The notes beneath the pieces were generated by a model that had not been told where the DNA came from, did not search any database, and was given only the letters and a program-made list of their open reading frames with translations. The position numbers were made by a program, and so were the translations under genes. Shown piece by piece: positions 12,720-47,417 of a stretch of 64,000 nucleotides of DNA; within the stretch, counting starts at the first letter, position 1; each line of letters opens with the position of its first letter. The stretch covers positions 1,533 to 65,532 of the forward strand of contig CALBHW010000037.1 of NCBI GenBank assembly GCA_937893125.1, given 5' to 3'. The stretch is from an uncultured Clostridia bacterium. Its GTDB lineage: Bacteria; Bacillota; Clostridia; Christensenellales; UBA1242.

Positions 12720-12867
12720 GAATTCTTGGATAAAAAAAGAAAATTGTTTTGTCACAAAAAACAAAATTAAATTTAGCAAAAAGTTTTGCAAAAAAAATGC
12801 GGAAGTTTATTTTTATTTAATTAAATATTTTTACAAAAGAGAGCAAAACTACAAAGGAGGAATCGTT

Positions 12868-13413
12868 ATGGATTTCAATGATGAAAATAGGAGAGTAAAT
12901 AACGCAGGGTTAAATGCGAATAATAAACCTGCCCAGTCGGGCAGTGGTTTTTCGGCTGTAAAAAATCAAGCGACTTCGCCTATTGGAAGGGAAAATGTTA
13001 GGGCGACTAATTTTTCTCAACCTAATTCAGTGGGAATAAATAATGGTTCTCAAATTGGGCACGCTCAAAATATGAATGCATCTAGGATGGGGCAACCTCA
13101 AAATGTGCCGAATCCTCAAAGTGCTAGACCTAATAATCAGCCTTTGAGTCCTAAAAGCATTCGACCAAATGGAGCCCAACAGTTAAATGATTCTGGGCGA
13201 CCTAACTCTTCGGGACAAAATGGTGGAGGCTTTGCGGGACAAGGTGGGAATTATACAAATCAAAATGCTAGACCTAATATGCAAAACTTTCAAAATGTCA
13301 ATAGACAAGGTAGCCAAAATTTTGGTGTGCAAAATCAAGAAAGTAGAAAGGATTTTGACAATAACAAAAAGGATAGTGACGGGGTGGAAAAGAAGCCTAG
13401 GTCGAAAAGGAAG
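12868..13413 (+). other. Giant protein aa 1-182: low-complexity N/Q/G/S/P-rich predicted cytoplasmic region ending in KKPRSKRK
   Basis: The sequence NAGLNANNKPAQSGSG...QPQNVPNPQSARPNNQP...GQNGGGFAGQGGNYTNQNARPNMQNFQNVNRQGSQNFGVQNQ has no hydrophobic core. A basic cluster lies immediately before the TM helix. Confidence 0.7.
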
Positions 13414-16400
13414 ATTGCCTTAGTTTCAATTTTGTTGTCACTTCTTGCTGTTGCTGGGATTATAATTGGGATTGTCGTTGCGCCAAAAGGCGAATGTACA
13501 ATTAACTTTGTTGGCTGGGCGGTTGAAGTGTCGTCTGAAACTTGTAAAAAAGGTGAAAGATTTGTTGCTCCAACGCCAGAAGATATTAGGGATGAAAATG
13601 GAAAGGTTTTGCTTAAATTTGACGGTTGGACTTATGATGACGGCTCAATGTATACGCCTTCCGTTTTAAGTAACGACCTTACTTTACACGCAAAGTTCAC
13701 CGCAAGCGATGTTAAAACTACTTTTGTAAGTAGAAACCTTTTTGATGAAAATGACGAATATGTTTATTTGTATGAAACGACAACAAAGTATTTTGTTGAA
13801 AAAATAAATTTGGCTGATGTTGCGTCGGGGGTTAGACTTCTTGATACGGGGAATGCCAATATGTATCGTTATAGTTTTGCGTCGGGTGCAAAAACTGAGA
13901 TTTCGACTTTGCAGACTGATACATATAGAAATTTTATTTCCAATTACTATAATATTGCTGATTTTAAACTCTTTGGCAGTGACACAACTTATACTTCTTT
14001 TGACACAATTGACACTCCAAAGGGTAATAAGGCGTTTGTCATAAGTTTTGGCGCAAAAAATGTCAAAATCAATTATGATGCGAACCTTTCATGCTTAAAA
14101 GATTTTTATTCGGGAGAAGATTTGAATAGGCTTCTATCGTCTATTTCAAAAGGCGCTTCGGAGTCTATTGTTGAATACAATACTGATGGTTACATAATGA
14201 AACCATATAAGGAACAAATGGTTGACTATTTTAGACCAAGTAAACATGAGTTTTTGGGTTGGTCGCTTGTGCCATATGATACGACGACTACAATTTCGTC
14301 GTCATCTTATATTCCATATGGTGTGACGGAAAAAATCGACAAAAATTTTCTTAGAAACAAATCAGAAATAACTCTTTACGCTGTGTGGACGGAATATAGG
14401 ACGCCACTTAGAATTTACACGGACGCAAAACTTCTTGCCGACACAAAAATCGCAGTTGGCGCGAGTATGAGAATTGACGATTGGTCGTCGCAAGTTGATA
14501 AACTTAAAAATTACAAAGCGGGTTACGCTCTTATAGGCTTTAACACTCAACCTGATTTTACGGGTGAAATTGTTAATTTTGATACAGTTATTGAGGGTGG
14601 AATTGACTCTAAATATTACAATAACGACGAAGAAGCAATCGTTTTGTATGCCGTTTATGCAATGGTTGTTGAAGATACATATTTTAATTTAAACACCGAT
14701 TTACTTGACCCTTGCGTTGTTCCAAATGTGGACGAGTTGATTTCAAAATTTGATATTGTCCTTAATCACGACAATTTTGTGTTTAAGACAAGCGAAAGTG
14801 ATGTTGGATATGTTTATGATAATGAAATATCCGCCACCTTTGACAGCGAAAATAATCGAGTTGTTTTGAAAAATTTGATTGAAGGCGCAACGATTAAACT
14901 CCCTAATTTTGAAAGAAGAAATAGGGATTATGTGGATTTGTCAAATTATAATTTAAAAGGCTATATTTTGACGACCGATTTAACTTCAAAGATAAAATCG
15001 GTAGATTCAACTTTTATTGTTACACAGGACGATACTTATAAGGATGAGAATAAAAACAAACTTGCTTTTGATCTTGTTTGGACGGGAATTGATAGCGTAT
15101 TTTCAATTGAATTTTACAACTACCACTCTATTTCGCAAGACAAGGATTTTAAACTTGTAATGGAGTTTGTTTTGCCATATGGTGTGTCTCTTGACGCAAA
15201 TTGGGCGGACGAGTTTTTAAATAATGCAACATTCTTTGATTTTAGACTTCGCAACCTTGACAACAATGAGATTTTAACTGAAAGAACATTTGAAAGAGAA
15301 GGCTTTAAATTTGAAGGCTTTAGTAACGGCGAAGGCGGAGTGTTACTTGAAGAAACTTTACGCAATTTTACTTTAAACACCGACTTTTTCTATACAGGTG
15401 AAAGGCATCATAGACTTGTTGCAAAGTGGACAAAAGAGACATATGATGTAACATTCTCACTTGGTGGTGGAGAATATCTTTCGCGTGATGACGGCGAAAG
15501 TAGCGCTAGTGACTATGTATTGACCGTTGCATATGACGACGAAATAAATTTACTTAATGACGAGTTGTCTTTTACGGGCTACTATTTTGACGGCTACCTT
15601 GACGAACAAGGAAACAAGTATGCGGAAAATGTTGAAAAAGTAAGGATTTCCGATGCTGTGACATTCACAGCGCAATGGGTAAAGGCTTATGTTATAACTC
15701 TTTTCCTTGACTTCTCGCGCGAAGAAAGTAGGGAAATTTTGGTTGAAAAGAACGGTGATTTTGTCTTGACTGGCAAGGAATTTTCCGACTTAAATGACGC
15801 TTATATCTTTGAGAGATACAGTGTAAGTTTGGTTGACAATACAAAAGATACGGTAGGTTTTAACGTAAGTGATAAAAAACAATCGTTTATCGGCGTTGAA
15901 CGCGACATTGAAATGTACGCGATGTGGTTTAAGGTGTCGTATAGTAACGGCGACGACGGAAGTTTAGGTGTGACTGACTCTAAAACTGAAGAATATTATG
16001 TGACAAATAAGGCAAGTTTCAGACTTTTGAACAATCCTTATTCACTTCCAGACGAAAAAGATTATTATCAATTTGATGGTTGGTCAGTTGACGGGTCAAT
16101 TGATACTTACAGCGAAAATTATTACTATTTGATTTCGCAATCGTCACCAAAAAATATCTCTGTTACGGCTAAGTGGAGACTAAGAAATGTTAAAGTCGTA
16201 ATGTATTATGACGCGCAAGAATCGTCAAATTATGTCGATGGGCTTGCCATTAACAATCAATTTATTGTGTCGAGTGATAACGGCAGGCTTGTAAATGGGA
16301 ACGGGCGTGAAATTGACTACATTTTTGACTCACAAAATGCAAAATTTATCGAAAAGAACGCAACAAGTTTTGTTATTTCAGTTCCAACAATTGTAAATGA

Positions 16401-19400
16401 TAGAGGCGAAAAAGATTCGCGTATTGTAAAAATTGACGGCGAATATGTATATAAGATATTTACAATGTGGAAATATGTTATCACATATATTTCTAGCGAT
16501 GTGGGCGTGGTGCAAGTTATTGCAAACGAATTTTTAGGGGCAAGTTTGAAGTCGGGCGCGACGCTTGATAGTAATAATATGACAAGCCTAAACAATATTG
16601 ACGACTCATATGTTCTCACCCTTCCAAATAGGGAAAAGGTGGAAGGAGAAAAATCAAACGGCGGGTTTGGCTTCAAAATTTCAAGAAAATTCTTTGAAAA
16701 ATGGTCAAGTGATAGTGTCCAAATCGTTGAAAATAGTGGCGTCCAAACGGCAAAAATCGTAAAAGACACAACTTTTACTGCTAGCTGGCGCGGACTTGAT
16801 TATACTCTTCATCTTGTAGACTCTCTTGGAGGACTAACTTCAAGGGATATTTCGGTCAAATATGGTGAAGAAATTTTGCTTAGCGACCATTTTACAGCAG
16901 ATGAAAAAACAAGGCTTTTTGGCGGAAGTAACGGGTGCTATAAAGTTTTGACTAAGATGTCTTATGAATATAGCGGAGCGTCTAAAACATTTAGTATTGA
17001 CGAACCGATCGTTTTTGGCACGCAAGATGTGGGCGGTTTTATTCTTGAAAGTGACTTAACGGATAATGAAGCGGAATTCCGCGTCGTTTGGGAAGAAAAA
17101 CAATACACGATGACCGTCCTTTTGTCAGGTGGCGAATGGGATAGCGGGGTAAGTTCGACCGACGAGTTTATTGATTTAAACGGAACGCTCAAAAAGGATA
17201 GCGACAACAATTACTATTTTGAGTATCCAGTTTTCTATTCGTCGTTAAGTGCTGACGGCGTTCAAGTCGGGTTTAAGGGGCTTAAAAAGAACGGATATAG
17301 ACTAAATGGCTTTACTGGCTCTGACTTTTTGTCCGAAATAACAAATGATAGTTGTGTAATAAAGTATTCTGGCACGGCGGAAAGTTTTGACGCGGGAGAA
17401 AGAAAAATTACGGCTGATTGGCAAAAAGTTTTGCATATCAACTTTAACTTAAACGGTGGAAGCGTCTCTTATAACGGAACAACAACGGATACGATTTCAA
17501 CTTATGATGTCGACCTTGACGACCAAAATAATACTACTATTGATTTGTCGCAAATTATGCTTGATGCGACAACTACTTTAAATGGTGGAATATTTAAAGG
17601 AAAAGACGGCTTTGAATTTGTCGGGTTTAGTTTTGACAAAGAAGGCTTTAATGCGACTTATCAAAGAAATGAAGATAGTTATTTACTCGCGGGAGCGTTT
17701 AGTCTTGCGACATCTTTTGAAGAAAACGCGACTTATTATATTTTGGTTGACGGTAAGTATCAAAAGGCTACTGATGTAACAAGCGAAAATTTTGCAAGTG
17801 GGCAATATTATGTTTACAATGGGGCGTTCTATTCTACGCTTGTTCCTATTTCATTTACGACCGAAATGTACGAAAAATATGCAAATCTTGCGTCAAGTTC
17901 AGTGACCTTGTACGCGGTTTGGAAAACTAGTGTATCATTTAATAACGGAAAACAAGAAGTCGGCGAGACTGTGTCATATTTCACGCCTATTGAAGAAAAT
18001 GAAGTGGCAAGTTCGTCGGAAGCGTTCAATGTGGAATTTTTCTATAATCAACAAATTTCAGTTGAAGACCTTGCGCGTTTTGGCTTTAAGGCAAAAAATA
18101 GCGAAGTCTACAATATGAGCGGTTGGGTTTGTGATGGAAAGGCACTTACAAGTGTTACAATAGACAAAAAACTAACTTTGACGGCAAGGTGGAATGTCAA
18201 TAAGATAACCGTTTATTTCAAAAACTACGACGGCTCTGATTTTGACGGGGTGGAAAAGAGTTTTGAATGTTTCAGCGGTGACACAATAACTGGACTTGGC
18301 GAAAAATTTAATTTTGAGCCAACACTTTTTGGCTACACATTTATAGGTTTTTCAAATGAGCCAACAGATAACTTAATCGGCGAAGGTGACGCAAAAGACT
18401 ATTACGCGCTAGACGCGGAATATGTCGTTCCAAGCAACTCAACAATCCTTTATGCGGTTTTCCAAAAATGTAGAGTTATTGTAAAATACGAGCCTAACTA
18501 CGCCGATGTTGTGTCAACTGGAATCACAAGTGACGACGGATATGCGTTAGACGAAGAAAATTACTATTATTATCAATTTGGTGATAGTTATCTTCTAAAT
18601 GATAGTGCTACTTTCTCAAGAAGATTCTTTACATTTGCGGGCTTTAATTTGTTTAAAGATTCGCTCATTCCACTTGCGAGTAAAAATGTCGCCTTAACAA
18701 GAGAAAATGGCGTCACTTTAAACGATGCGGGCGAATATGTGCTGACTTTGTATCCAGTTTGGAATAGACAAACGAAAGAAATTACACTCATCCTTGACGG
18801 TGGAACATTTGACAATAGTGAGGCGTTTTACGATGAAACAAATGTTGACCTTTATAGGTCAGTTGTTGTTGGCACAACAAAAGTTGTTTTGACTGTTTAC
18901 ATTGGCGAAAATGTAACTGTGAAACTCCCAACATCGGATGTTTTAACAAAAGTAGGATATGAATTTGATTGTTTCTTAAACACTTCGGGCGGAAAAATGG
19001 GAGCATATGTTACTTGCGAAAATGCGGACGCAGTGACGTTTACTGCAACATATAAAAAGATTATTTCGATAAACATTCACTTTACGGAAGATGACGTGCA
19101 ACAAATAGCAACTGTTTACTACGACGATATGATTAGTTTTGACATTGTGGACAGTAGCGGAATTAGATTTACAAATATGGGCGTTATTCCAAACGTAGAA
19201 AACACACTTTCGCACGAAATCAAAAATTATCACATAAAATCACTTTCAAGTAGCATTATTGCGGGTACAAAATACACAATGGGAATGTTTTATAATGCGC
19301 GTGAAGAGTTTTTTGAAATTTCAAGTGCGTCAACTATCGACCTTTATGTTTCATATGAAGGTGACTTGTCGACAGTCAAATTTGACCCATATAACGACGA

Positions 19401-43400: not shown

Positions 43401-46400
43401 TGTTAATTTGTATAAAGGTTCTCTAATTAACAACACTGCGGACTACAAGTACACAGAAGCTATCGGCGAAAAAGAAGTTGAATTCCACGAAGGTAGTGGT
43501 GGCGGACTTTACATCTCTTATAGGTCAGAAAGTGACGAAGGGAATTCCGTTTGTATAGGGTACAACGAAGGGAAAACTGAAAATATTGTAATCTCTGGCA
43601 ACATTGCATATGACGACGGCGGTGCGATTTACTCGGGTGCTTCACTTAAAATTATGAACACAAAAGTAGGTGCTGGTGATTCTGCGGTCGGTGCGCGTAG
43701 CAAGAGTTCAAACTATGCGGGTAGTCGCGGTGGTGGAATTTATGTCGCGGGTGGCAAGTTGCAAATGAGTGATTCTACAATTTACAACAGCGTTGCACCT
43801 TATGGTGGCGGACTCTATATAAGTAATCTTGACAACCCAAATAGTGAAGGCAACAAAAACTTCATTGAAGGTGTTACATTTGATAAGAACACTGCTGGAA
43901 AGACGAAAGATTTTGAACGCAAAGAAGGTACCTCTTCAATTATTGCAGGTGATTACCACGGCGGTGCAATGTATCTTGCAAATGGACCTTTGACATTTAA
44001 TGGCGTCACATTTACAAGTAATCAAGCGACCTATGGTGGCGGAATGTACATCAATAGAAGCGGGACGTCGGAATTTAAGATTACAAATTCAAAATTCGAA
44101 GGAAATAAAGCGGTTGCTTCAAGTAAAGACGAAGAGCCTAGCGGTTTTGGTGGCGCTATCCACATTCAAAACGGAAATGTTAGAATTACATCTTCTTTGT
44201 TTGGTCAAGATATCAATAACAAAGGTCAAAAAATCGGCAATCCAAATACCGCTAACTATGGTGGCGCGATTTCGTTAAAACAAGGCACTTTGCTTATTGG
44301 TGAAATTGTAAGCGGAACAGAAGGTAGCGTTGACACTAAGAATGTTACATTTAGGTCAAATACTGCATCAATAGACGGTGGAGCGTTGTACCTTGACGGC
44401 ACATCTGGTAGACAAAGTTCAAAGACTATTCTCAATAATGTTTTGTTTGACGGCAATACAGCAACAAGTGGCAAGGGCGGTGCAATTGCTTCATATTCGT
44501 ACTTTGAAGTAAATAGCACAACATTTGCGTCAAATAGAGCAAGCAATGGTGGTGCTGTTTATGTTGGAGCACAAGGCACATATGATGAGGCAGGGAAAAG
44601 TTACACAGACCTTAGAAAAGGCGAAGGACATTTTAAAACGGGCATAATGACTGGAAACTCTGCAACAAATGGTGGCGCTATATATGTTGATGATTTATAT
44701 AAAGACGAAGCAGGTTTGATTTTAAAACACAAAAAGTCGCCAGATTACATTCAAGAATTGGCAAGCAGAACAAGCAATTCGGGTAATGATGGATTTGTTA
44801 CTTATGTTGTAATTTCAGAAGGCTTTGGTAGTACGCAAGAGAAAGACCCACGCATAGCAATTTATGGAAACCGTGCAGACAAAAATGGTGGCGCGATATA
44901 TGCAAATAATGGGGTTGTTAACAATTCGACTAATATTGTAAATAACTCGGCGAAACAAAATGGTGGCGGACTTGCAATTATGAGTGCATATTTCATTCAA
45001 GAAAAGGGTGCAATAAGCAACAATACTGCAAGTAATGGCGGTGGCGTCTATATGGATAAAGTGGAAGAAAAGGACTCCTCAAACGCCACAAAGACATATT
45101 ATGGCGTTTTAAGCCTTAATACATCGTCGTGCGAAGTTTCAAACAATAATGCAGAGAAAATTGAAAAAGATACGGAGAACAAAACTGGATACGGTGGCGG
45201 AATTTTCGGCGCTGGAAAGCTTGCTGGTAGTGGATTTATTCAAAATAACACGGCAACAAACGGTGGCGGACTTGCAACAAATGGCAACTTCGACGCAAGT
45301 GAGTTTATTGGCACAATTGGTATTAACTCGTATGAAAATGAATATTCAAGCTGGCTCGCGATTGAAACTGCAAGTAACAAAAGTACGACTTATACTTACG
45401 AGTACTCAAATGGTGAAAAAGTCACACTTCCACTATTTAGCAACAATGCAACAAATGGTGGTGCTATCTATGTTTCAGTTGGAGATGTAACATTTGGTGG
45501 AAGTATTTTAGGTAACTATGCTACAAACGGTGGCGGTGTATATATCGCGTCAGGAACATTTGCTTTTGGACTTGAAAGTCGAGCAATGTACATTGCAAGA
45601 AACTATGCTACAAATGGTGGTGGCGTGTATATGGCTGGCGGAAAGTTTACACTAAACAAAGGCTCAGTCATCGGTTCGACAAAAGTAAACAGTAGCAATT
45701 CTGATGAAATGATGAATGCACCAGCGCCTAATATCGCACGAGACAGCGGTGGTGGAATTTATGCAATAGGTGGCGAAATACAACTTAAAGGCTATGTTTC
45801 GTACAATAGAGCATTAAATGAAGAAGGAAATGCAGGTGGCGTTTATTGCAAAGACACAAATCTTACACTTGATGGAAGTGAAGCGCAAATTTCCCACAAC
45901 GAAAGCGCAGGAAAGGTCGGAGGCTTGTATTTCTCGGCTGGTAGTGGATTGCGTACATTAACATTAAACAATCGTGCTGTTATAAGTAAAAATACGGCTA
46001 AAAAGGAACACAAGGACTTACTTGAATACATTTCAATTAAAGCAAACGATGAAGGAGAAAAGAAATCTCCATATGTTAATGAAGTGTATATGGACGGAAA
46101 TAGTGAATTAAAGGTATTAAATCACAGCGTTTTGGGTGCGAACCAAAATAACTTCACGGACGGAACGGCATATTATTCATTGTCATTATATTGGTATTAT
46201 ACGGGGACAAAGGAGACAATTAACTTTGACAGCTGTATAGATAGTTATGGTTCCGTTAAGGGTGATATTTATCTTAGAACGGACGGGGATAAGGTAATAG
46301 AGTTTGATACAAAGATGTTCGAAGTCGACTATAACCCTGGTCAGGAAGACAAAGAAACTGGAAACGAAAGGTCAAGCGGTTTTGTTAAAGGTAATTATGT

Positions 46401-47310
46401 CAACGGACTTCCTAACAATTTCTTCGTTTATTATCGTAGACATCACGCTTTCCAAAAGGTTGAGAAATTTACAGACCTAACTGGGCTTATTGAAATTCCT
46501 TATCCAACAGTTGTAAAAAACACGGTCATTAGATTAAATGGTAGCAGTGATAGGTTTGAGTGCCGTGGGGAAGATGGTTGGCTTATTGATCCATTCCACG
46601 ATAGGGACGTTTATCTTGGCTCTTCGCTCGTGTGGGTGCCAAAAGACTCGACTTCGGACTTTTTAATTTTCTATTTGCAACTTATTAGTGGTGCAAATGA
46701 CATTACATCAAGCATTCAAGACGATATTGAAGAGCAACTTGGAATAGACAAGGTTAAAAACTTTGCAAATGATGTCGGTGGAATTGTTATGATTCTTAAT
46801 AAAATCTTAGAGAATGTTGAAGAAGGAAGCGCAATTGATAAGGCGTTAACATGGATTGGTTCTAGTACACAAGATTTGCAAAAAATGCTTGACGGCATAA
46901 CGGATAAGATTAAGGGACTTGAAGGTTATGGTGATGTGGAAAAAGCTGCAAAAACTTTAGCTATTATTAGCGAAGTTAAGTCCGTTGTTGATATGCTCTT
47001 ATATATCGCGACAGGAGACCTTCATTTGTTCTTAGCGTTCAAGTATGATATGAATTTTGTTGTTGCTCAAATCCCTGTTATCGTTGCGAATCCAGCGAAT
47101 TTGGAACAATGGAAAGATTATAGAGATGCATTCCAAAACAAGTCTTCGCGTGAAATCTTCAAGATTCTTGTAAAATCAATAAAGAACGGCGGTAAGTTGA
47201 TTATCAGACTTATTCCAGGTCTTGGAAAGGCAATTGCGGATACAGGACTTGGCTACGATTGGATTATGAATATGATTGAAGAGTGCTTTACTTGGGAAGG
47301 TTTAGACTAA
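12868..47310 (+). CDS. Giant (11,480 aa) membrane-anchored surface fibre protein: N/Q-rich cytoplasmic head, signal-anchor TM, Flg_new-type repeats, seven Pmp-type parallel beta-helix modules, BspA-type LRR module, unassigned C-terminal domain
   Basis: Uninterrupted ORF of 34,443 nt. AGGAGG lies 7 nt upstream of the ATG and an intrinsic terminator starts 45 nt after the stop. The longest shadow ORF on any other frame inside it is 150 aa. Domain calls come from motifs read in the translation (see sub-features). Confidence 0.9.
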   Translation: MDFNDENRRVNNAGLNANNKPAQSGSGFSAVKNQATSPIGRENVRATNFSQPNSVGINNGSQIGHAQNMNASRMGQPQNVPNPQSARPNNQPLSPKSIRPNGAQQLNDSGRPNSSGQNGGGFAGQGGNYTNQNARPNMQNFQNVNRQGSQNFGVQNQESRKDFDNNKKDSDGVEKKPRSKRKIALVSILLSLLAVAGIIIGIVVAPKGECTINFVGWAVEVSSETCKKGERFVAPTPEDIRDENGKVLLKFDGWTYDDGSMYTPSVLSNDLTLHAKFTASDVKTTFVSRNLFDENDEYVYLYETTTKYFVEKINLADVASGVRLLDTGNANMYRYSFASGAKTEISTLQTDTYRNFISNYYNIADFKLFGSDTTYTSFDTIDTPKGNKAFVISFGAKNVKINYDANLSCLKDFYSGEDLNRLLSSISKGASESIVEYNTDGYIMKPYKEQMVDYFRPSKHEFLGWSLVPYDTTTTISSSSYIPYGVTEKIDKNFLRNKSEITLYAVWTEYRTPLRIYTDAKLLADTKIAVGASMRIDDWSSQVDKLKNYKAGYALIGFNTQPDFTGEIVNFDTVIEGGIDSKYYNNDEEAIVLYAVYAMVVEDTYFNLNTDLLDPCVVPNVDELISKFDIVLNHDNFVFKTSESDVGYVYDNEISATFDSENNRVVLKNLIEGATIKLPNFERRNRDYVDLSNYNLKGYILTTDLTSKIKSVDSTFIVTQDDTYKDENKNKLAFDLVWTGIDSVFSIEFYNYHSISQDKDFKLVMEFVLPYGVSLDANWADEFLNNATFFDFRLRNLDNNEILTERTFEREGFKFEGFSNGEGGVLLEETLRNFTLNTDFFYTGERHHRLVAKWTKETYDVTFSLGGGEYLSRDDGESSASDYVLTVAYDDEINLLNDELSFTGYYFDGYLDEQGNKYAENVEKVRISDAVTFTAQWVKAYVITLFLDFSREESREILVEKNGDFVLTGKEFSDLNDAYIFERYSVSLVDNTKDTVGFNVSDKKQSFIGVERDIEMYAMWFKVSYSNGDDGSLGVTDSKTEEYYVTNKASFRLLNNPYSLPDEKDYYQFDGWSVDGSIDTYSENYYYLISQSSPKNISVTAKWRLRNVKVVMYYDAQESSNYVDGLAINNQFIVSSDNGRLVNGNGREIDYIFDSQNAKFIEKNATSFVISVPTIVNDRGEKDSRIVKIDGEYVYKIFTMWKYVITYISSDVGVVQVIANEFLGASLKSGATLDSNNMTSLNNIDDSYVLTLPNREKVEGEKSNGGFGFKISRKFFEKWSSDSVQIVENSGVQTAKIVKDTTFTASWRGLDYTLHLVDSLGGLTSRDISVKYGEEILLSDHFTADEKTRLFGGSNGCYKVLTKMSYEYSGASKTFSIDEPIVFGTQDVGGFILESDLTDNEAEFRVVWEEKQYTMTVLLSGGEWDSGVSSTDEFIDLNGTLKKDSDNNYYFEYPVFYSSLSADGVQVGFKGLKKNGYRLNGFTGSDFLSEITNDSCVIKYSGTAESFDAGERKITADWQKVLHINFNLNGGSVSYNGTTTDTISTYDVDLDDQNNTTIDLSQIMLDATTTLNGGIFKGKDGFEFVGFSFDKEGFNATYQRNEDSYLLAGAFSLATSFEENATYYILVDGKYQKATDVTSENFASGQYYVYNGAFYSTLVPISFTTEMYEKYANLASSSVTLYAVWKTSVSFNNGKQEVGETVSYFTPIEENEVASSSEAFNVEFFYNQQISVEDLARFGFKAKNSEVYNMSGWVCDGKALTSVTIDKKLTLTARWNVNKITVYFKNYDGSDFDGVEKSFECFSGDTITGLGEKFNFEPTLFGYTFIGFSNEPTDNLIGEGDAKDYYALDAEYVVPSNSTILYAVFQKCRVIVKYEPNYADVVSTGITSDDGYALDEENYYYYQFGDSYLLNDSATFSRRFFTFAGFNLFKDSLIPLASKNVALTRENGVTLNDAGEYVLTLYPVWNRQTKEITLILDGGTFDNSEAFYDETNVDLYRSVVVGTTKVVLTVYIGENVTVKLPTSDVLTKVGYEFDCFLNTSGGKMGAYVTCENADAVTFTATYKKIISINIHFTEDDVQQIATVYYDDMISFDIVDSSGIRFTNMGVIPNVENTLSHEIKNYHIKSLSSSIIAGTKYTMGMFYNAREEFFEISSASTIDLYVSYEGDLSTVKFDPYNDENEMYIKSSDFNFGQSVTLSDVFGQPLDRNDYVGYNFVGYKLLNVAGEPYEDGKYEFADNFATFNPEILGLDYQKVYVFVAMFEERMFDVEFDFDGGAYVSGGVKNSSATFKVQYSSQANLLDILRAGNEDLTILHSEDSADGRIHPLYHFTEFTSEDIEINGNVFTMPAKNIKVKPVFESNEIILSIDATGTLIGQSIGQGYYEALKENKYDLSLGGVNNNSTLFVKGLKIGDRIDFSDLPLPVNIGFAGTYAYLPDFNGASGEVFDNSEKDYTKVGSTDVFDLLSSKINPNTLTNLDSLYSETLGGFVLYFSTVWETNEYTINYVPFIPIVSNGYPVGATEKVVTGETTSQSVKYGEDITLLAPYSLTGWTQIGWSTTRSLNDEKCVIYYFGENGELPHGVYNFTTEQSGVFYLYPVWRQNTYTIELVDTESNNNLMRDGVKSSSLSIKFKYDEIRTLDDLLTGITINEFTYNEEKTIYLVPSKFVYMASSTGIETEFKREDVLVFSQAPYGFIDGKDFTENTIHISVVFEEVYYTIRFHLLEGGIYQNNNTELAQNYNEENETYTLEGLVRYSALNSANIEDLFTMEQLYLLNENDIVKILDMTYTLAGWSRSAGADRMDVLKGTPLSYILDNPKETLKKTENGFDYVFNFYAMYNDILLTLNGNGGTTLTSAPSTIETDDSTWIKEAKSVYTYAYFGKNIDIDEDLFKYFALNNYHYDKNNRIEADISCPTSEKFVVNREMTQIDISWIGNLRLVSMVSTIGGNISVASDFKYELFKVDGLDIGLTEIAYSDLPADLTDVYAYIYTAQTLSSLETGTLVLASTLGELSSKYTYYKKAPIGITFKARFGDEITDLNKVEIVGNSVTFTGWGDEYGIYSGDDCKLNVEQADGDIICLFSQSENVYVTFNLNGGIYYDTTKSEWVEKIAPYKLLTVSGSSLFYIDLPLDILNGAGLGPTKTGYQFIGWSTYENYDLYLAGDRSLLYSRTGFEDIVATTQFTTTEFKNTTLYAMFMPISIRFDFSFRLSSTDTTSKGEEFSITGKYGESIVFPSLNDGSSYSEIMKNWSHGQDVFVDYNLPTENAGTKIYKQGYKFILLKDEDLSFYNFTTVEEINDKGQKVQVYVIKVYSNWATPTVTVKIYLGGGKASEYAYFGDTTTVSNDLRKDGLGVYLTAKAVFEKYYTLPNLDDFYKRNYYASAYYAKSSYTDLIEDNQIYISSKDEVSVFVKMDDADSYIKGFYTSCGFNKYFGKLETALQSGASLERNNVEVVLLDLRSEFVITKQYNIGDNKNFVISLDDGVKGDKTIRRSYVADSVDKTLITAGENSSLTLSAHKSYSLIFDGGERIAKITCGNLTINSKVVVKNLEITGDDQVVNGGAFWVENGTVTISGAEFTDNKFVGVSASTTYYGTVLYATNADVTISSSAFNNNSLSGAGLLYGGAIAVVTKSLNIVDTSFNKNSAQSESTLIGDSPFIDGNPYGAVGGAVYAYDVQFNFDFESGKGFTSNIADVGGALAIDGSVEREISFETPVFSKNYAVYGGGVYLRNIILKLTNAKLSSNGFIDKVVARKGGLFYLDEGATLSLLVDMSSILDDGSIGVTTGDGFFAQNLATFGGAIYSAGKKVEIEYNKFQLNSFSADFAKDFLESGTSEGAGGAIYAESGEVILRKVTFQYNYSVYGGAVYIGGDAKLTMDTADLLREYIESLDPSKVTDTIIEQYSNSLSDNFAKYGSQIYYASTNEESTITYTIIQKGMQEFNTPNERGGNLYVAGGKLTLLEKTYIFGGYSKMGGGAYVGKDIMLNDDSTKPAELVVNGANFVWMNEQVDGMNVGLLNSAREKIKELETQIEEAKSRGEDTTQLEEQLAEFKKKEEEILKQLEIKIIDPDGNYAYMGGMFYIDENATVTLLSGYGAGTEIEYAEDTPSGQGELAYNKGTLIYDDFLFGQHMIDGIISQIYNEGLVEFRTSGSSDFLTSPIIYIDKTEDAYKYILITNDKYVPARTIELMFDDSSYLIGVPVVKFIDKDVYDAFKLNYEASKMPFYILSEPLLDLKFDDEQMALVLRYRHYNLYFNDLSVDRADIRTPNSLIFTCDDPISGDFFSTISSQKLSRTGYNFKGFAYYVVTEDSGLPSTYDNNIACKFDGKLADNDGIEVLDFLDKNIAGKTFYRIEDVTELESGFKKFPPHDIYLYAIWEPKTYNMTYHYDTNYGGMEGVSSYTIKGVNLTDFNLGKLNSVGKYGDNYKFITLEELTAFDYVAYFTISTISSSISGEPLQIMDGGITYDVTFDADLYKYVYIKGETKFIVESESRSYCILDLSTYSGEDKAELEKGEKRSVFIDGVTYNFRYRYIPDGYEFDHIEINGNSCFNLGDLFKLDNSNRFAICTSEPYTIDIVLYMKRSNVEIAFTNLGEKSSDIVLSRYVGATITLPTGTVSIMDDIERVIYKAGYVLKGFNDSNGNFWALGTTYSIPSTALIGETFTAVWEKASFYVKNVVKTERETLNKYYQSIFDAVADINSDNFDIKTSGGYDLVLMELADEVLKEDSLMKSSNGKGTDYIIYLDKTLSLKNGTNILGEARANCNFILTYSLGFDNEKALINISSEVTIGQSGNNVIIKDVRNSVTLSNSAIEVESTGKLTLGVNAEISNITATTSSTKRFGGAITNKGELILNGAYIHHNMAIYGGAIYNYKGAKVTINNPTKSSNSGRILENVATENGGAIYIEEESEVVINGDENVISFNSNSAKSGGAIYSLGILKIMSQVIFTNNGATENGGALYINGMITIGDNAEFTSNYATRGGAIYVTTTLILGSVKFSDNKISSTGQGGAIYSESSLTINGSAQFVQNNKNGAGSGGAIYAKGSLSIKSGMYSENEAGSGGVLCVLNAQATIIGGTFTKNISKLGGVIFAENSTVSILGGDIKENEAVVSVGSDTGVQSTGGGAVYLVDSTLDLAVKLQNNTASSGGAIFARGASVVTLNSGAQIVGNTAHSFGGGIYLIEEATIEITDDTVEISSNTADSFGGGIYVASTSVVTLDKGVILNNYITNTRKNKEGLLVYEGTDLYLNSGAHVVISGAKVGADNLNDTTYEVYVGEKAVLEVISCDILASVYVKQIKTAQETGFNSIILSDSAYIRRIYLNQYNFIAIENKLTSTRFDAGETIDIHFGFYDPDDATSIIDNTYIARFNNMTTLKDNFICFNLVKHFKELEEYCINRENRDGYAWLVIKEFAKIININANGGTITLDGKSASGNASLVVENLQKRGSLKFLDDITGVRLGYELSGRFIEEETNEIYSSYSPLPIYVITIKAEWAPKAYNVVIERESDSGLIKDNLELKYSDFTTLSSCNKDYKKFVGYEVGYFKDDNVVKTGIILNGTTFSFKDFNSDSVVSSDGLTTGSQIFEIIDKSLDKTIYLTSVFEDVKVVLTFLANSALAQAVDIADLPDYDKEKYEVERVNDLTYRVSVSQSNMYVSIYDFLEFFKMPSHAVTGFFTGEDGTYNEGRDVMYNADRTSIPIHSILTLHLQCVWQETVAYIRKPDSSGEGRIVYYDSLEKAVNALIPRDELVILANKIELDKTIYFTTDVKVVIPGEVTLTRVKGFNDYLLDISSIVTFEVQEGGKLVFSGAGLGVSTFGAVMVEKAGTLTVGKNVFFTDNYSINAGAGINSLGKLFVEGATFERNTSQSNGGALSSSGVLEISKDSTFSKNISWKMGGAIYVSDGTSQIVNSTFLENNAYTSGGAIGFDSKLTMNVTTSTFVGNFTDIKDGSSGGAVFVGLDTGLVTLKDSTFTSNSSYMGGAIYVLGVTIGNADYNVLIDGGSLSNNTATFGGAVCIGSTAYYARQSLRLSGGEILENSATYGGGVYVFRGAYTLAKGKVANNTASFGDNIYVNYNGTLNILGGEVGSPENNGTIFVAGLTYSTFGRVYFSGRYDVKSKVLLANGAYVTVEGTIDKNSSVVILEPIKVSKNVVTGTNYPSGKGSLKVVQFENTIDERMFDLTDDVKNIGVDSFRLKLIDNNLYITKAVFTLKVYKESGDFEIDSALGATIDIDFVSVEVPYTTNLLEFLSGITATRENKDFAGWLSIENGAKTPLTAESTMPYSDYEVYANWSADYYFLKVYVNDSYSPSDTYALVNVAGLNLNSESKESYADGVITLKVFVDKDDSTFGTQALQRVINNLSRNNYTILGFGLSQLIENNLVVYTASNFNMPEKDLSLYVLWEGNSYNLTIASEDGTIERKTYTLIFDQYFTLPGEDDFVKDGYTLTGFRGRSTTYGVKENVLNLTDATLYAVFEANEYVINFASNNQSAYGQIESIVATYDKDVALLGNSFTLRGYTQIGWSLDKLALPTDTDKIIAINATIRNLAMGGEVTLYAIWAPNTYNISYHLSGAETSDVVFTETATYDDEFTLTKLKDMGVVYSASYYLVGWSIRPYIYTDRVEATFTDGQKVFNLIESGTIHLYAILDEKAVKVYANNGSSDFVLVKTNAQGKAVVQKSNLSSLKLDGFEVGLLSSSPNISSGETYEFTENGISFDLMDAESVVELYIGWKAMSYTFEFVVAGEKFSEFGSQTKSVKVFGNNTYSTYSDNNQLFIYTSNLDNILIHGWSVDENTSTLDFNLGTNVQVTNSLLAIFGKFQDTTKKTLKIYAVLEDSYELSYDLNTTYNVAFASATDIVAKGSVTTPVTKVGTKEKIRFSDISNNIWEIADLENNVYAYFAGWALENTASEPEYAVGQNYEVTFVGKVTLYAVWKEYTNPFMFTYEEYNDGVSIVGISSAFNGTEIVLPRHEILNNNGTLVKGKDVLKIAPLTFSAHTISAIDFEFATSLETVSSFAFRDVSGLTVLRNLPQKANYDDGAFVSSTLQKVVFEDSINRYDVDKLGNVYKVDEKATLLALLAGNCFDEMAIGGMVTLQNSGAVKVEVLKRYALYLARINALDLSQLSKIESGALENISGLETLTVSFVGESAENKKPLKEWFSGSEIVLKNVYITKEQEISSNAFSGLATLEYVEYLSGITFIGNEAFKDCIKLSFLRGTGSAKIDLSQVTTIGDSAFENCASLTGSVDFTQVSSIGKYAFLGTNIEEVVLTRKTSQFGYNFNSSLSIGEFTAFYGATSLKNAYVYSTNALDAVINNTGIKGGENKIGTIYVDVNFYTVLTHLSDITRRDNYFSYNIVVYDRIELLDADNIVGYYDDLQGAIDSAKNGQKIVIKTDIVIEETIEINKNITIVGGFRKVDPSDESYKYTLSRSSVTLTIDDALTDKVVFAVTANDAEIGTKLDIDGIIDAQIVVYSLFTRSASVISLNNGGLILGENFVASGITANESTYGAILSVREHSTLFINGATLTKNRAGYGGAIYVQDSNVSITSSNISNNTADENGGAIYVKGAGRLVIEKSSNPTIMSHNIAGAKGGAIFISSTIVDANYASTLDNGKIFDNEATLGGAIYIESGLLAIADDSVTISNNTAISGGALYAESGTILLSCGVIGGVEASPLGLENKGNSATEQGGAIYIGKEATLNMEGGEVSLGKSKLGSNIYISSNKTSEISSGTIESGYMDDLTNTRGGGIYLDTGTLVLLDNATISKNKAYFGGGIFVGRGTLQVNFILEGAGITNNFATFGGGLYVDSGIVRLVGARLSQNKAQNGGGIYAKGGEISTSSVSESVIDDNWAILGGGLYILGQANVDLKATTISNNKAKVIDGVELTDESEFNGAGIYFEDGKLSLYNVSVLSNSAQTSGGGLYVGTQKSTKSSTISISGKTIFTQNTANVSGGGLYVDRTLNILQAEFLANGQVEGMLGGAMYVGKNSVLTLDNVRVSTKNSSVNNQTMGIYLEEGGKSNAFIVSSKTVIDKQNTFVYLSHGSIVRINEKGSKDNQIKLYSEDFNNIKTMDDRVRVAEFTKSAYAISGKFYARSTAFLQEKTTIYAVIATVVETKRTGSTGDADQTNYSTLREAILQCEDDALLSVFRTQTVTSAIYIPRNKTATVVVNDNEFESVLIERAESYLGYMFVVYGTLNLNDGRSTTLTINGKNVTGGASAMFVGETGTLNINKNVEIVNNYASADRGTLVENLSKGETIRIEDSNCGGAIYIRGGVVNMASGNLVNNSAKNSGGAVYVASGTFTMTGGNIGEEGNGNTATYGGGISAISGEVVLDGETVIVKCNTSEFGGGLYIGTQGKLRILKATIQNNSATNGGGLYLSSSLSGVSYDAMLAKVTYNTATGYGGGLYIKSGILGSTNLEWLNASIEISNNSATSGGGLYVVNNGSVNLYKATISNNYATLSGAGGYFDSKLTSTFTNSTISDNGKENGLGGEVTEFGGGLYILGGTVNFNKDGDFVSEIKSNYALNGAGIYVTNDGIFVSTGEARISSNIASENGGGIFVNLTTGKVELVGTILSQNKATLSGGGIYVEKGNLIFSSTAGEHTEGNLEENSAGENGGGLYIGGGRVTLNDLIIQKNRVSDGYGGGMYVAGGEYVDMTSCVIVDNKVTKAGVTDGYGIALSGGLLRLLGRNVIHNNATIYKENATTNSREGSILIMGETTDTNGVMLSGYIDSLYDQFYLFSKNSYLLTNLGTGKEGVDEILNKESASGLSVKIKVGQGLTTKKAYGDKAVKFSSADGAKKYLDQKWFEIPIESGMILASIIEDGRSYIVVERQYFQVFAYKEGDKINVLGAYMELQEALNNLAQLKDKTDRGYLIIANYGADTYYIKNIINISSTTVGDVGNMPITITSNQRNLNIARNGEFKDYMFVIESGYEVILGANIENFSDVYDIYSLDFVEDSLRPYLTLKGSSDSESGLIKNSGKLTLSYASKLTNETTTRDGAGVLSEGELILSGGVISENRATNGGAIYVKSGTFTMVDGSVYLNTATNGGAIYVGKNGVATIEKGEIGSSIVSRANTAVNGGGIYVGGGKLEIKGVQLLNNKATNGGAMFIAPEIVESVSYHPEVKISSKKVLGTDSVLIANNSADNYGGAIYVEDNYNTETDDKTLTIDGGIIQYNKAKAGGAIFIATVHGTADEKSYTGALKFSESGTKRKVYGVNVSILSGTIFGNSANRDQGHEEDTLKVKSGDGGQIYAFGGNLVVQGGDITGTGAYLAIDGGAIYLNDSKATIYGGEIKSNKVSNNAGAIYVDKNSSLTLDGDETGVYITSNSAYANGGAIYQEKGEVETKVISGGETVTEKVITSGVIRIIAVTLRANEVETGNGKGVYVNTIGKDFIIGRGKTDDGIEMLSNNLTISDELYLANKSIVYVDGLYNPSYIRTNKTIPLRIGFRSNDYVNSDGSRNIVAEYTNEITGSAIFESVDAGLFSGIGFDGQDCMFCIVDKYKVAVGKANFAVKYGTGAIKYFESFRNALYSVRVDAENPNISTATVYYLVDDIEKYVINEEITLTDGVETTVTSGVLIKNDDGSKTVSKIEKRLEMKVKTIGGSLITIKANDDDDSKAPNITFENITISGAERPTNPKAFNLFALHSGTLTLQDTILSSIYSSAQGGVVKVLGGNLVMSSTKEVGTQITGSKSSDGVLFVSNGTVKIMGANETSQVQFIGNTTSYGALYVESGEVEAEYVTFSGNIADFGGAVYLAKRETKDGEEVAFKVSFKNATFEENSAKQNGGAVYVSSVSSATFENAEFIKNSASGNGGALYLENDVKFSDTNISNGNANYGGGIYMTSDADSLSGVTMLGNRAVYGGGLAVVSVNEGLTVSIYNATLNGNKLKANAENASYGANVYIANSTCNFGANVVIQNGTRMDGNRNDALGGGVYMTASTLVVDGAGTIIEGNKATNGGGIYADTGSVLTIYNASISGNDVESGLGGGIYFNGEKLNVDKGAEIGKSDNGNKARLGAGVYIASGNVVVGNIDASGSGEATIGYNIASENGGGVYFETGNLTIAGYAYIVGNKASKSGGGVYATQSFKMTGGEIGTTESTDNANTASFGGGVYVESGFTFMAGSIAGNKANATRSVGESINGMGGGVYVLSGTFSMGEATDRPSGNPTIDSNTARLGGGIYVNSDGKSVNTSDTPNVNLYKGSLINNTADYKYTEAIGEKEVEFHEGSGGGLYISYRSESDEGNSVCIGYNEGKTENIVISGNIAYDDGGAIYSGASLKIMNTKVGAGDSAVGARSKSSNYAGSRGGGIYVAGGKLQMSDSTIYNSVAPYGGGLYISNLDNPNSEGNKNFIEGVTFDKNTAGKTKDFERKEGTSSIIAGDYHGGAMYLANGPLTFNGVTFTSNQATYGGGMYINRSGTSEFKITNSKFEGNKAVASSKDEEPSGFGGAIHIQNGNVRITSSLFGQDINNKGQKIGNPNTANYGGAISLKQGTLLIGEIVSGTEGSVDTKNVTFRSNTASIDGGALYLDGTSGRQSSKTILNNVLFDGNTATSGKGGAIASYSYFEVNSTTFASNRASNGGAVYVGAQGTYDEAGKSYTDLRKGEGHFKTGIMTGNSATNGGAIYVDDLYKDEAGLILKHKKSPDYIQELASRTSNSGNDGFVTYVVISEGFGSTQEKDPRIAIYGNRADKNGGAIYANNGVVNNSTNIVNNSAKQNGGGLAIMSAYFIQEKGAISNNTASNGGGVYMDKVEEKDSSNATKTYYGVLSLNTSSCEVSNNNAEKIEKDTENKTGYGGGIFGAGKLAGSGFIQNNTATNGGGLATNGNFDASEFIGTIGINSYENEYSSWLAIETASNKSTTYTYEYSNGEKVTLPLFSNNATNGGAIYVSVGDVTFGGSILGNYATNGGGVYIASGTFAFGLESRAMYIARNYATNGGGVYMAGGKFTLNKGSVIGSTKVNSSNSDEMMNAPAPNIARDSGGGIYAIGGEIQLKGYVSYNRALNEEGNAGGVYCKDTNLTLDGSEAQISHNESAGKVGGLYFSAGSGLRTLTLNNRAVISKNTAKKEHKDLLEYISIKANDEGEKKSPYVNEVYMDGNSELKVLNHSVLGANQNNFTDGTAYYSLSLYWYYTGTKETINFDSCIDSYGSVKGDIYLRTDGDKVIEFDTKMFEVDYNPGQEDKETGNERSSGFVKGNYVNGLPNNFFVYYRRHHAFQKVEKFTDLTGLIEIPYPTVVKNTVIRLNGSSDRFECRGEDGWLIDPFHDRDVYLGSSLVWVPKDSTSDFLIFYLQLISGANDITSSIQDDIEEQLGIDKVKNFANDVGGIVMILNKILENVEEGSAIDKALTWIGSSTQDLQKMLDGITDKIKGLEGYGDVEKAAKTLAIISEVKSVVDMLLYIATGDLHLFLAFKYDMNFVVAQIPVIVANPANLEQWKDYRDAFQNKSSREIFKILVKSIKNGGKLIIRLIPGLGKAIADTGLGYDWIMNMIEECFTWEGLD
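13414..13485 (+). other. Giant protein aa 183-206: single TM helix (signal anchor, N-in/C-out)
   Basis: IALVSILLSLLAVAGIIIGIVVAP is 24 uncharged residues, preceded by KKPRSKRK (positive-inside rule). It is the only clear TM segment in the protein. Confidence 0.75.
13486..23145 (+). repeat. Giant protein aa 207-3426: array of about 28 diverged Listeria-Bacteroides (Flg_new / InlB B-repeat-like) domains
   Basis: Recurrent units of about 70-120 aa end in hydrophobic-Y-A-x-W/F and contain G[YF]xFxGW. Examples: HEFLGWS...LYAVWTEY, FTGYYFDGY...FTAQWVKAY, YQFDGWS...VTAKWRL, TGWTQIGWS...LYPVWRQNTY, KTGYQFIGWS...LYAMFMP. Further units lie between beta-helix modules 1-3 and before the LRR module; I counted about 42 in total by hand. 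Confidence 0.65.
23146..25590 (+). repeat. Giant protein beta-helix module 1 (aa 3427-4241), Pmp/GGAIY-type repeats, with coiled-coil insertion
   Basis: Cap KYFGKLETALQSG..VEVVLLDL is followed by rungs such as NGGAFWV, YGGAIAV, VGGAVYA, FGGAIYS, AGGAIYA and YGGAVYI, with F/Y-x-x-N motifs (FTDNKF, FNNNSL, FNKNSA, FSKNYA). Confidence 0.7.
26902..29070 (+). repeat. Giant protein beta-helix module 2 (aa 4679-5401)
   Basis: Cap KYYQSIFDAVADIN; rungs YGGAIYN, NGGAIYI, SGGAIYS, NGGALYI, RGGAIYV, QGGAIYS, SGGAIYA, FGGGIYL, FGGGIYV. Confidence 0.7.
30019..31445 (+). repeat. Giant protein beta-helix module 3 (aa 5718-6193)
   Basis: Cap YYDSLEKAVNALIPRDELVILANKIELDKTIYF; rungs NGGALSS, MGGAIYV, SGGAIGF, SGGAVFV, FGGAVCI, YGGGVYV. 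Confidence 0.7.
33631..34893 (+). repeat. Giant protein aa 6922-7342: BspA-type leucine-rich repeat (LRR_5-like) module
   Basis: Contains I.x.AF..c..L-type units: VSSFAFRDVSGLTVL, IESGALENISGLETL, ISSNAFSGLATLEYV, IGNEAFKDCIKLSFL, IGDSAFENCASLTGSV, IGKYAFLGTNIEEVVL. Confidence 0.6.
34930..37188 (+). repeat. Giant protein beta-helix module 4 (aa 7355-8107)
   Basis: Cap YYDDLQGAIDSAKNGQKIVIKTDIVIEETIEINKNITIVGG; rungs YGGAIYV, NGGAIYV, KGGAIFI, LGGAIYI, SGGALYA, FGGGIFV, FGGGLYV, NGGGIYA, SGGGLYV. Confidence 0.7.
37189..39360 (+). repeat. Giant protein beta-helix module 5 (aa 8108-8831)
   Basis: Cap NYSTLREAILQCEDDALLSVF; rungs CGGAIYI, SGGAVYV, FGGGLYI, NGGGLYL, YGGGLYI, SGGGLYV, NGGGIFV, SGGGIYV, YGGGMYV. 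Confidence 0.7.
39361..41373 (+). repeat. Giant protein beta-helix module 6 (aa 8832-9502)
   Basis: Cap AYMELQEALNNLAQLKDKTDRGYLIIAN; rungs NGGAIYV (x2), NGGGIYV, NGGAMFI, YGGAIYV, AGGAIFI, DGGAIYL, NAGAIYV, NGGAIYQ. Confidence 0.7.
41374..46440 (+). repeat. Giant protein beta-helix module 7 (aa 9503-11191), the longest continuous run of Pmp-type rungs
   Basis: Cap KYFESFRNALYSVRVD is followed by about 39 G-G-[AG]-[IVLM]-[YF]-type rungs by my count, e.g. FGGAVYL, NGGAVYV, NGGALYL, YGGGIYM, NGGGIYA, SGGGVYA, MGGGVYV, RGGGIYV, NGGAIYV. Confidence 0.7.
46441..47307 (+). other. Giant protein aa 11192-11480: unassigned C-terminal domain ending in a predicted alpha-helical tail of about 209 aa
   Basis: The GGAIY periodicity stops. 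The sequence changes to HHAFQKVEKFTDLTGLIEIPYP...ECRGEDGWLIDPFHDRD, and from 46681 to amphipathic helix-like text (SSIQDDIEEQLGIDKVKNFANDVGGIVMILNKILENVEEGSAIDKALTWIG...). There is no LPXTG, no clear TM helix and no repeat. Confidence 0.5.
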
Positions 47311-47354
47311 AATTTAGTTTAAAATCAAAATTAAAATTCATATTCTTAAAAAAA

Positions 47355-47388: not shown

Positions 47389-47417
47389 TCCATTTTTTTT
47401 GTTTTTGGTATGTTTGG

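Follow-up and report, generated by a model that had tools for sequence, protein, structure and literature searches.

An intact 34-kb gene of gut Clostridia encodes a predicted membrane-anchored, adhesin-like giant surface protein

Here we describe a giant gene in a 64,000-nt stretch of DNA (the window) from contig CALBHW010000037.1 (positions 1,533–65,532; GenBank assembly GCA_937893125.1), in which a single open reading frame (ORF) at 12868..47310 on the plus strand spans 11,480 codons. We find the gene intact and subject to purifying selection; its recognizable domains can be identified and ordered along the product, the product lacks an LPXTG motif, and its putative anchor segment is conserved among orthologues. 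We consider it likely that this is a native, functional gene for a 1.25-MDa type II (N-in, C-out) membrane-anchored, adhesin-like surface fibre of gut Clostridia. That the gene itself is real and functional is almost certain.

An intact gene under purifying selection

The frame begins with ATG and ends at a single terminal stop, and the ORF scan thus confirms the one intact 11,480-aa ORF claimed in a preliminary description of this DNA. Across the same interval, the longest ORF in any other frame has 150 aa (16317..16769, minus strand), again as first described. From composition, at ~38% GC, a stop is expected in about 1 of 15 random codons (~6–7%), and an open frame of 11,480 codons is therefore not due to chance. 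The gene and the signals around it are as follows.

12537..12564, plus strand: candidate sigma-70-type promoter, TTGAAT-16-TATAAT with an extended TG (consensus scan)
12855..12860, plus strand: Shine–Dalgarno sequence AGGAGG, 7 nt 5′ of the ATG (read directly)
12868..47310, plus strand: giant ORF, product predicted at 1,249 kDa (1.25 MDa) with a pI of 4.65
47350..47387, plus strand: terminator-like hairpin of 16 pairs, then a T-run (1 site versus 0.1 expected in shuffles)

The AGGAGG lies where the preliminary description had placed it. The terminator attributed to the gene is present too, with its 16 pairs and T-run, but its stem starts 39 nt past the stop and not 45 nt as first given. The promoter candidate, ~300 nt 5′ of the giant-gene start, is weak evidence, as promoter-like sites in the region are no more numerous than in shuffled sequence. 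It falls within a 1-kb AT-rich, non-coding leader (window 11857–12867) that separates galE from the giant gene, contains many A/T tracts and is partly kept (76–84% identity) at the orthologous locus of contig CAKVCH010000003.1, described below. Across positions 11800–13000, where shuffles predict 0.3 terminator-like hairpins, the scan returned seven, of which four fall in the leader and three just within the giant ORF (12929–12982). Scanning the whole window against Rfam gave no match, so that the 1 kb upstream of the gene contains no known riboswitch or leader element.

Assembly collapse had been judged unlikely on the grounds that the repeats are diverged, and the DNA agrees with this. Tandem Repeats Finder reported no tandem repeat in the giant gene, and its longest dispersed repeats span 30–63 nt at 60–92% identity, all centred on the codons of N-x-A-x-x-GGAIY; at the protein level, internal repeats are mostly 25–40% identical in self-BLAST (best short segment, 52%). 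GC at third codon positions (GC3) is flat along the gene (0.31–0.37; flanking housekeeping genes, 0.29–0.37). Total GC climbs from ~0.31–0.36 at the 5′ end to 0.43 at 42–44 kb, a rise confined to codon position 2 because the beta-helix rungs encoded there are rich in Gly and Ala. Horizontal transfer or a chimeric join was rejected as the source of this rise, given that position 2 alone rises and GC3 does not. The 3′ part of the gene is also found in a second assembly: European Nucleotide Archive (ENA) contig ERZ27300227:k119_14979, which begins inside the gene, is 100% identical to window 42420–58678 and covers the last 1,629 codons. Exact look-ups of four neighbouring genes (Fe-alcohol dehydrogenase (Fe-ADH), leuS, U32 peptidase and galE) retrieved only this contig and one short Logan contig.

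A close orthologue lies on CAKVCH010000003.1, a contig of a metagenome-assembled genome (MAG) from the Hadza gut named ‘uncultured Clostridia bacterium’, where the order ABC–ABC–galE–giant gene is syntenic at ~83% DNA identity. The orthologue is open from its start codon to the contig end, equivalent to aa 2327 of the giant protein, and its 2,322 aa are 81% identical. Over 2,310 aligned codons (Nei–Gojobori), dN/dS is 0.098 at a dS of 1.14; each 200-codon block of the ectodomain gives 0.04–0.15 and the N-terminal head 0.31. The giant gene is under purifying selection, as measured over these first 2,310 codons. A more distant, collinear orthologue (~39–44% identity) on the 40-kb Oscillospiraceae MAG contig CAVHMC010000003.1 is open for at least 4,660 aa, in one frame from the stalk across the first beta-helix cluster and through the B-repeat spacer beyond it. 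Orthologues split at the module borders had been proposed as evidence against a single product; at the borders examined in these two orthologues (2,322 and at least 4,660 aa), no split was seen.

When 5.8 billion proteins were searched with a stalk query and a four-sequence stalk profile, one true collinear match emerged, a partial protein of 1,526 aa that NCBI names ‘InlB B-repeat-containing protein, partial [Clostridia bacterium]’, and a scan of JGI metagenomes with the stalk profile found nothing. The orthologous family is thus essentially absent from protein databases, which is partly a database effect, as genes of this size fragment in assemblies. Few bacterial genes exceed 10,000 codons, and those that do usually end up in pieces in assemblies. 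Such fragmentation is probably common in this family and masks its full-length members, given that contigs break within the gene despite the lack of any DNA repeat longer than 63 nt.

A modular, beta-rich product

Along the protein, the following segments can be distinguished. The seven beta-helix clusters were delimited with Pfam and NCBIfam models, a hidden Markov model (HMM) of the rung, and self-BLAST.

12868..13413, plus strand: low-complexity head, aa 1–182 (N 19%, G 11%, Q 11%, S 10%), predicted to be cytoplasmic (composition)
13414..13482, plus strand: single transmembrane (TM) helix, aa 183–205 (IALVSILLSLLAVAGIIIGIVVA), predicted uncleaved signal anchor (hydropathy)
13483..23664, plus strand: membrane-proximal stalk, aa 206–3599, with 15 InlB B-repeat (Flg_new-like) units and ~2,000 aa of unassigned segments (in-house HMM)
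23665..24837, plus strand: beta-helix cluster 1, aa ~3600–3990, 5 Pmp-type rungs (Chlam_PMP and POMP_repeat models)
24838..27264, plus strand: spacer with two B-repeat units, aa 4259–4371 and 4575–4660 (in-house HMM)
27265..28527, plus strand: beta-helix cluster 2, aa ~4800–5220, 11 rungs
30265..31092, plus strand: beta-helix cluster 3, aa ~5800–6075, 4–5 rungs
31471..33624, plus strand: second B-repeat array, aa 6202–6919, six units (in-house HMM; TIGR02543, 37.4 bits)
34285..34767, plus strand: BspA-type leucine-rich-repeat (LRR) domain, aa ~7140–7300 (Pfam LRR_5, PF13306)
35245..36867, plus strand: beta-helix cluster 4, aa ~7460–8000, 14 rungs
37405..38787, plus strand: beta-helix cluster 5, aa ~8180–8640, 12 rungs
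39715..40977, plus strand: beta-helix cluster 6, aa ~8950–9370, 8 rungs
41815..46047, plus strand: beta-helix cluster 7, the longest, aa ~9650–11060, 32 rungs
46048..47307, plus strand: orphan C-terminal region, aa ~11061–11480 (420 aa), for which homologue searches were empty

The segment at aa 183–205 is the sole 19-aa window above 1.6 on the Kyte–Doolittle scale in the whole protein (peak, 2.93). The head ends in KKPRSKRK directly before it, which by the positive-inside rule would place the head in the cytoplasm. At the other end, the protein terminates in ...CFTWEGLD, with neither an LPXTG-type ending nor a terminal TM helix, and a loose search for sortase motifs matched nothing beyond aa 10,458, which is over 1,000 residues short of the C terminus. 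The proposal that an N/Q-rich head and a signal anchor stand in place of LPXTG therefore holds as a prediction. The TM helix, the ensuing PKG(E/D) motif and the first domain are kept in all three orthologues. Head length varies, from 182 aa in the window to 79 aa in the orthologue on CAVHMC010000003.1 (128–364 of the 14-kb stretch read from that contig). The head also evolves faster than the ectodomain, yet it retains its MDF start and the basic residues that precede the TM helix.

B-repeat units were recognized with an HMM that was built and iterated within the giant protein itself. The whole protein has 23 of them, each of 72–113 aa and with the signature G(Y/W)xFxGW...LYAxW, and the resulting profile matches the InlB B-repeat structure PDB 2Y5P end to end (E = 3.7 × 10−6). 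The units are highly diverged, at 12–28% identity to the reference unit. NCBIfam TIGR02543 exceeds its cut-off (20.95) in two 1,000-aa segments, at 21.9 and 37.4 bits, which include aa 1067–1105 of the stalk and the second B-repeat array. The Flg_new assignment of the preliminary description accordingly passes with the NCBIfam model and fails with the Pfam ones, which stay below cut-off (PF09479, 23.9 versus 27 in the second B-repeat array; PF18998 (Flg_new_2), 19.6 versus 23.6). Its count of ~40 Flg_new domains exceeds what can be recognized: aligning the segments between the 23 units to the B-repeat profile with hhalign gave nothing significant, and about half of the stalk is not recognizably B-repeat. 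An AlphaFold2 (AF2) model of aa 206–1200 from a two-sequence alignment had a predicted local distance difference test (pLDDT) score of 29.3, too low for a meaningful check on the beta-grasp-type fold of the unit.

The rung HMM finds 86 rungs in seven clusters, the same number of beta-helix modules as first described, with limits at aa 3713–3952, 4852–5205, 5877–6040 and 7512–7971 for clusters 1–4 and at aa 8243–8635, 9000–9326 and 9709–10972 for clusters 5–7. The seven regions cross-match one another in self-BLAST, and cluster 1 is also present in the orthologue on CAVHMC010000003.1. Chlam_PMP (Pfam) or POMP_repeat (NCBIfam) exceeds its cut-off in 8 of 12 scanned segments, all within aa 3,001–10,800, with best scores of 79.5 and 74.6 bits, respectively. 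A composite pattern, [F/I/V/L/M]xxN-x-[A/S]-x(2-5)-GG[A/G][I/V/L/M/F], recovers 64 rungs with a modal spacing of 25–28 aa, 19 of which carry a literal FxxN, and 94 of 96 GGA-type motifs lie in aa 3600–11060. The LRR domain scores 84.6 bits with LRR_5 (cut-off, 27.7) in three stretches and matches PDB entries 4fs7, 4gt6 and TpLRR 6mlx; Chlam_PMP and LRR_5, two of the Pfam families named in the preliminary description, are thus supported. PDB sequence searches with the beta-helix, spacer and stalk segments found no match.

Beyond cluster 7, the last 420–440 aa contain no rungs. The last 680 aa matched no Pfam or NCBIfam model even at E values up to 5, coiled-coil noise aside. For the C-terminal region itself, a word-indexed search of 5.8 billion proteins returned nothing, a full HMMER search over 1.84 billion cluster representatives returned one spurious match to an unrelated repetitive protein, and neither a PDB sequence match nor a JGI metagenome locus was found. 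The distinct C-terminal domain of the preliminary description is borne out in this sense, as a region without rungs or homologues. A single-sequence AF2 model of the C-terminal 440 aa (pLDDT 33.6) is unusable as a structure, and its secondary structure, indicative only, gives a hint of a beta-rich first half followed by ~200 helical aa, with four long helices at aa ~11265–11380. A moderately hydrophobic stretch (hydropathy 1.6) lies at aa 11373.

Proposed role and alternative explanations

The order of the segments allows us to propose how the protein may be displayed. Residues 183–205 would act as an uncleaved signal anchor, leaving the low-complexity head in the cytoplasm, and the Sec machinery would export the ~11,275 residues that follow (N-in, C-out). 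The stalk of InlB B-repeat units and unassigned beta-rich segments could then serve as a spacer beside the membrane, and the distal two thirds, with the seven Pmp-type beta-helix segments, the BspA-type LRR, further B-repeats and the orphan C-terminal domain, would provide adhesive surfaces. Relatives of Pmp-type beta-helices and of the BspA-type LRR act as adhesins, and for this reason we propose the distal part as the binding part, whose modules may bind ligands on the host, on particles or on other cells. Such a layout, from anchor through spacer and binding modules to tip, would be the mirror image of LPXTG proteins. At ~0.48 nm per beta-helix rung and a few nanometres per B-repeat, the fibre might reach a few hundred nanometres, as a rough and not a computed figure.

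Several points weigh against the membrane-anchored fibre. The surface fibre is proposed here from sequence, from which we infer membrane topology, surface exposure, adhesive function and fibre shape, the topology being drawn from the positive-inside rule and a hydropathy plot. Both structure predictions are poor (pLDDT 33.6 and 29.3), and ~45% of the protein (roughly 5,000 residues) has no assigned domain. No ligand can be named for the predicted adhesin, and a membrane-anchored chain of this size would have to pass through a Gram-positive wall. At the level of the DNA, the public short-read contigs ERZ27300227:k119_14979 and CAKVCH010000003.1 both break within the gene, and aa ~4,400–9,850 lack support from an independent assembly or an orthologue among the sequences retrieved.

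The hydrophobic segment could instead be a cleaved signal peptide with an unusually long head, in which case an 11,275-aa product would be released as a secreted giant exoprotein, or as one associated non-covalently with the wall or matrix, for example a biofilm matrix or aggregation factor. The residues VVA at −3 to −1 before PKGE resemble an AXA-type cleavage site, the protein has no second anchor (neither LPXTG nor a C-terminal TM helix), and other Oscillospiraceae giants without TM anchors are predicted to be extracellular by West-Roberts et al. (2023, bioRxiv 10.1101/2023.11.21.568195). By established signal-peptidase rules, however, cleavage is unlikely to follow a 23-residue hydrophobic core, which has the length of a TM helix and not of a signal-peptide h-region, or to occur before a Pro at +1. 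That Pro is kept in all three orthologues, the one on CAVHMC010000003.1 has LLV-P in place of AXA, and a conserved cytoplasmic head (79–182 aa) ahead of a signal peptide would be unusual. We therefore regard a released product as unlikely.

A bolder form of the membrane-anchored fibre would make this family a distinct, ‘inverse-polarity’ class, in which the N-terminal anchor and N/Q-rich head couple a filament of more than 11,000 aa to the cell interior (for clustering, positioning or signalling) and the homologue-free C-terminal domain adds a distal activity of a new kind, for instance by binding a receptor or by inserting into the membrane of a partner cell. Room for it is left by the ~45% of the protein, head and C terminus included, to which no domain can be assigned, and by the near-absence of the family from protein databases. 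This we put forward as speculation, and think it rather doubtful.

Quite improbable, in our estimate, is a contact-dependent effector-delivery fibre like CdiA or WapA, whose filament would present a variable C-terminal toxin or membrane-active domain. The C-terminal 420–440 aa are orphan in every search, as would be expected of fast-evolving polymorphic C-terminal domains, and come after a long beta-helical region; their last ~200 aa are predicted to be helical with one moderately hydrophobic stretch (1.6 at aa 11373). Pfam and NCBIfam scans of the protein, however, revealed no two-partner secretion (TPS) domain, FHA, RHS, LXG, pre-toxin motif or known toxin domain, and the gene is followed not by a small immunity-type gene but by a strong terminator and then Fe-ADH and leuS.

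Last, it is highly improbable that the 34-kb ORF arose in assembly, by chimeric joining of several repeat-protein genes, or that it is an unexpressed relic, the contig breaks and the unconfirmed aa ~4,400–9,850 notwithstanding. A chance or chimeric join would not hold 11,480 codons in frame, GC3 is uniform and equal to that of the flanks, no repeat is long enough to mislead an assembler, both gene ends are independently confirmed, and in the orthologues the segments keep their order and stay in frame over 2,322 and at least 4,660 aa. A relic is ruled out by the dN/dS of 0.10, at least across the first 2,310 codons.

Relation to known giant surface proteins

The giant gene is a well-preserved member of a class already noted, the giant repeat adhesin-like proteins of gut Clostridia. 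Section 12 of the survey by West-Roberts et al. (2023, bioRxiv 10.1101/2023.11.21.568195) reports Clostridia proteins of 10,000–30,000 aa from mammalian gut metagenomes, which carry Listeria–Bacteroides repeats, leucine-rich repeats and other adhesin domains and are read there as adhesion proteins. Our protein shares with them, as there described, the class Clostridia (Oscillospiraceae-related), the human-gut MAG habitat, the size class (11,480 aa), the proposed adhesion role, Listeria–Bacteroides repeats (TIGR02543, 21.9 and 37.4 bits) and an LRR (LRR_5, 84.6 bits). It differs in that YG repeats, dockerins and ShdA-type domains, which that section lists, were not detected in our Pfam scan. 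The section gives domain types only, and describes neither this family nor its anchor and head, its seven Pmp-type clusters or its orphan C terminus. The separate RCC1-type class of Oscillospiraceae giants in the same survey has a different architecture.

Ebh, a giant staphylococcal surface protein of ~1.1 MDa, is held in the membrane by a C-terminal TM anchor and not by LPXTG (PMC4856396). The two are alike as giant Firmicute surface proteins with one TM helix in the cytoplasmic membrane and a long repeat-built ectodomain (PMC4856396); for the protein described here, this placement is predicted. Their polarity is reversed, as Ebh begins with a signal peptide and has its TM anchor at the C terminus. 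The repeat families of Ebh are FIVAR, GA and DUF1542, none of which was detected by the Pfam scan in our protein, which is beta-rich and of 1.25 MDa. The earlier statement that it is larger than Ebh is thus correct (1.25 versus ~1.1 MDa; PMC4856396). Ebh is thus a precedent for holding a giant Firmicute surface protein by a TM helix, and in this respect only the polarity differs.

With chlamydial Pmp proteins the rungs share the FxxN and GGA(I/L/V) signature and a period of ~25–28 aa. Unlike Pmps, the giant protein has no autotransporter beta-barrel (its last 680 aa match no model), comes from a Gram-positive spore-former without an outer membrane and has its repeats in seven separate clusters. 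It is roughly ten times the size of the Pmps. The Pmp repeat signature forms beta-helix coils with adhesin function, according to PMC11166332 and PMC10715098, and one study reports that BspA and Pmp family proteins mediate the adherence of Trichomonas to host cells (bioRxiv 10.1101/454884; journal version PMC6701047). Proteins with InlB B-repeats or Listeria–Bacteroides repeats, which often also carry a BspA-type LRR, resemble ours in the 2Y5P match, the passing TIGR02543 scores and the presence of LRR_5; the units here differ from typical ones in being so diverged that Pfam Flg_new and Flg_new_2 stay below cut-off.

Giant1–5 of Apilactobacillus kunkeei, extracellular proteins of 3,000–8,000 aa, combine beta-solenoid binding domains with long repeat stalks, and, as described in PMC12863079, resemble our protein as very large, elongated Firmicute surface proteins with a beta-solenoid and a repeat stalk, a likeness that for ours is one of prediction. 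Compared by that description, the beta-solenoid is N-terminal in Giant1–4, whereas the beta-helix segments here are distal to an N-terminal anchor (PMC12863079). No relationship in sequence to Giant1–5 emerged, though no direct comparison was made. Our protein does not belong to the LPXTG sortase-anchored type, as it lacks the C-terminal motif, hydrophobic segment and charged tail, and it is not a recognizable CdiA, WapA or polymorphic toxin, with no delivery module, toxin domain or adjacent immunity gene found in the Pfam scans and among its neighbours. In an unrelated Clostridial protein of 1,511 aa from the ENA, a Cys-rich cytoplasmic N-domain of ~290 aa is followed by one TM helix, a string of Flg_new repeats and a tail resembling a beta-helix; the layout of N-terminal anchor, B-repeat stalk and beta-helix thus recurs outside this family.

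Against this background, the suggestion that the protein represents an undescribed type of surface appendage is not sustained: the gut Clostridia giants in the cited section of West-Roberts et al., Ebh, the 1,511-aa Clostridial protein and two neighbouring window proteins with predicted TM anchors (below) all speak against it. Our general understanding of surface proteins is not changed by this gene. As a complete, selection-tested giant gene from human-gut Clostridia, it offers a reference for annotating MAG fragments such as the partial ‘InlB B-repeat-containing protein’ entries, and its product is a concrete candidate for a factor by which uncultured relatives of Oscillospiraceae might hold on to mucus, to food particles or to other cells.

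Host and neighbouring genes

The giant gene lies downstream of a galE-type epimerase gene and upstream of Fe-ADH, leuS and a U32 peptidase. Farther out, the window encodes two ABC exporters, a short-chain dehydrogenase/reductase (SDR), a helix-turn-helix (HTH) regulator, SpoIIE and TilS, together with separate condensation, adenylation and carrier-protein genes. In a Pfam scan of those neighbouring ORFs that reach 150 aa or more, no gene for an integrase, a transposase or secretion turned up, in line with the housekeeping surroundings first described. SpoIIE and the names of the orthologue MAGs place the host among the spore-forming gut Clostridia, as a relative of Oscillospiraceae. A wall-less, Mollicutes-like host had been considered as a reason for the TM anchor and was rejected on the same grounds, as SpoIIE is present and the orthologue MAGs are Clostridia and Oscillospiraceae.

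The condensation, adenylation (AMP-binding) and 79-aa carrier-protein genes form a dissociated trio resembling a nonribosomal peptide synthetase beside the HTH regulator (window 54312–57700, plus strand), which corresponds to 11893–15242 on ENA contig ERZ27300227:k119_14979.

Two further ORFs at the start of the window may encode surface proteins. One (1–1538, plus strand) is cut off by the window start and matches MBG_3 weakly; past a C-terminal TM helix, its cytoplasmic tail is rich in K/R and contains KKRGRP(R/K)K four times. These repeats are AT-hook-like and unusual for the tail of a surface protein. The other (1710–3440, plus strand) encodes a 576-aa protein without a Pfam match, in which a signal peptide precedes a region that looks like the LRRs of internalins, and a C-terminal TM helix leads into an acidic tail. 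Together, the two ORFs suggest that in this organism several surface proteins are held by TM helices in place of LPXTG.

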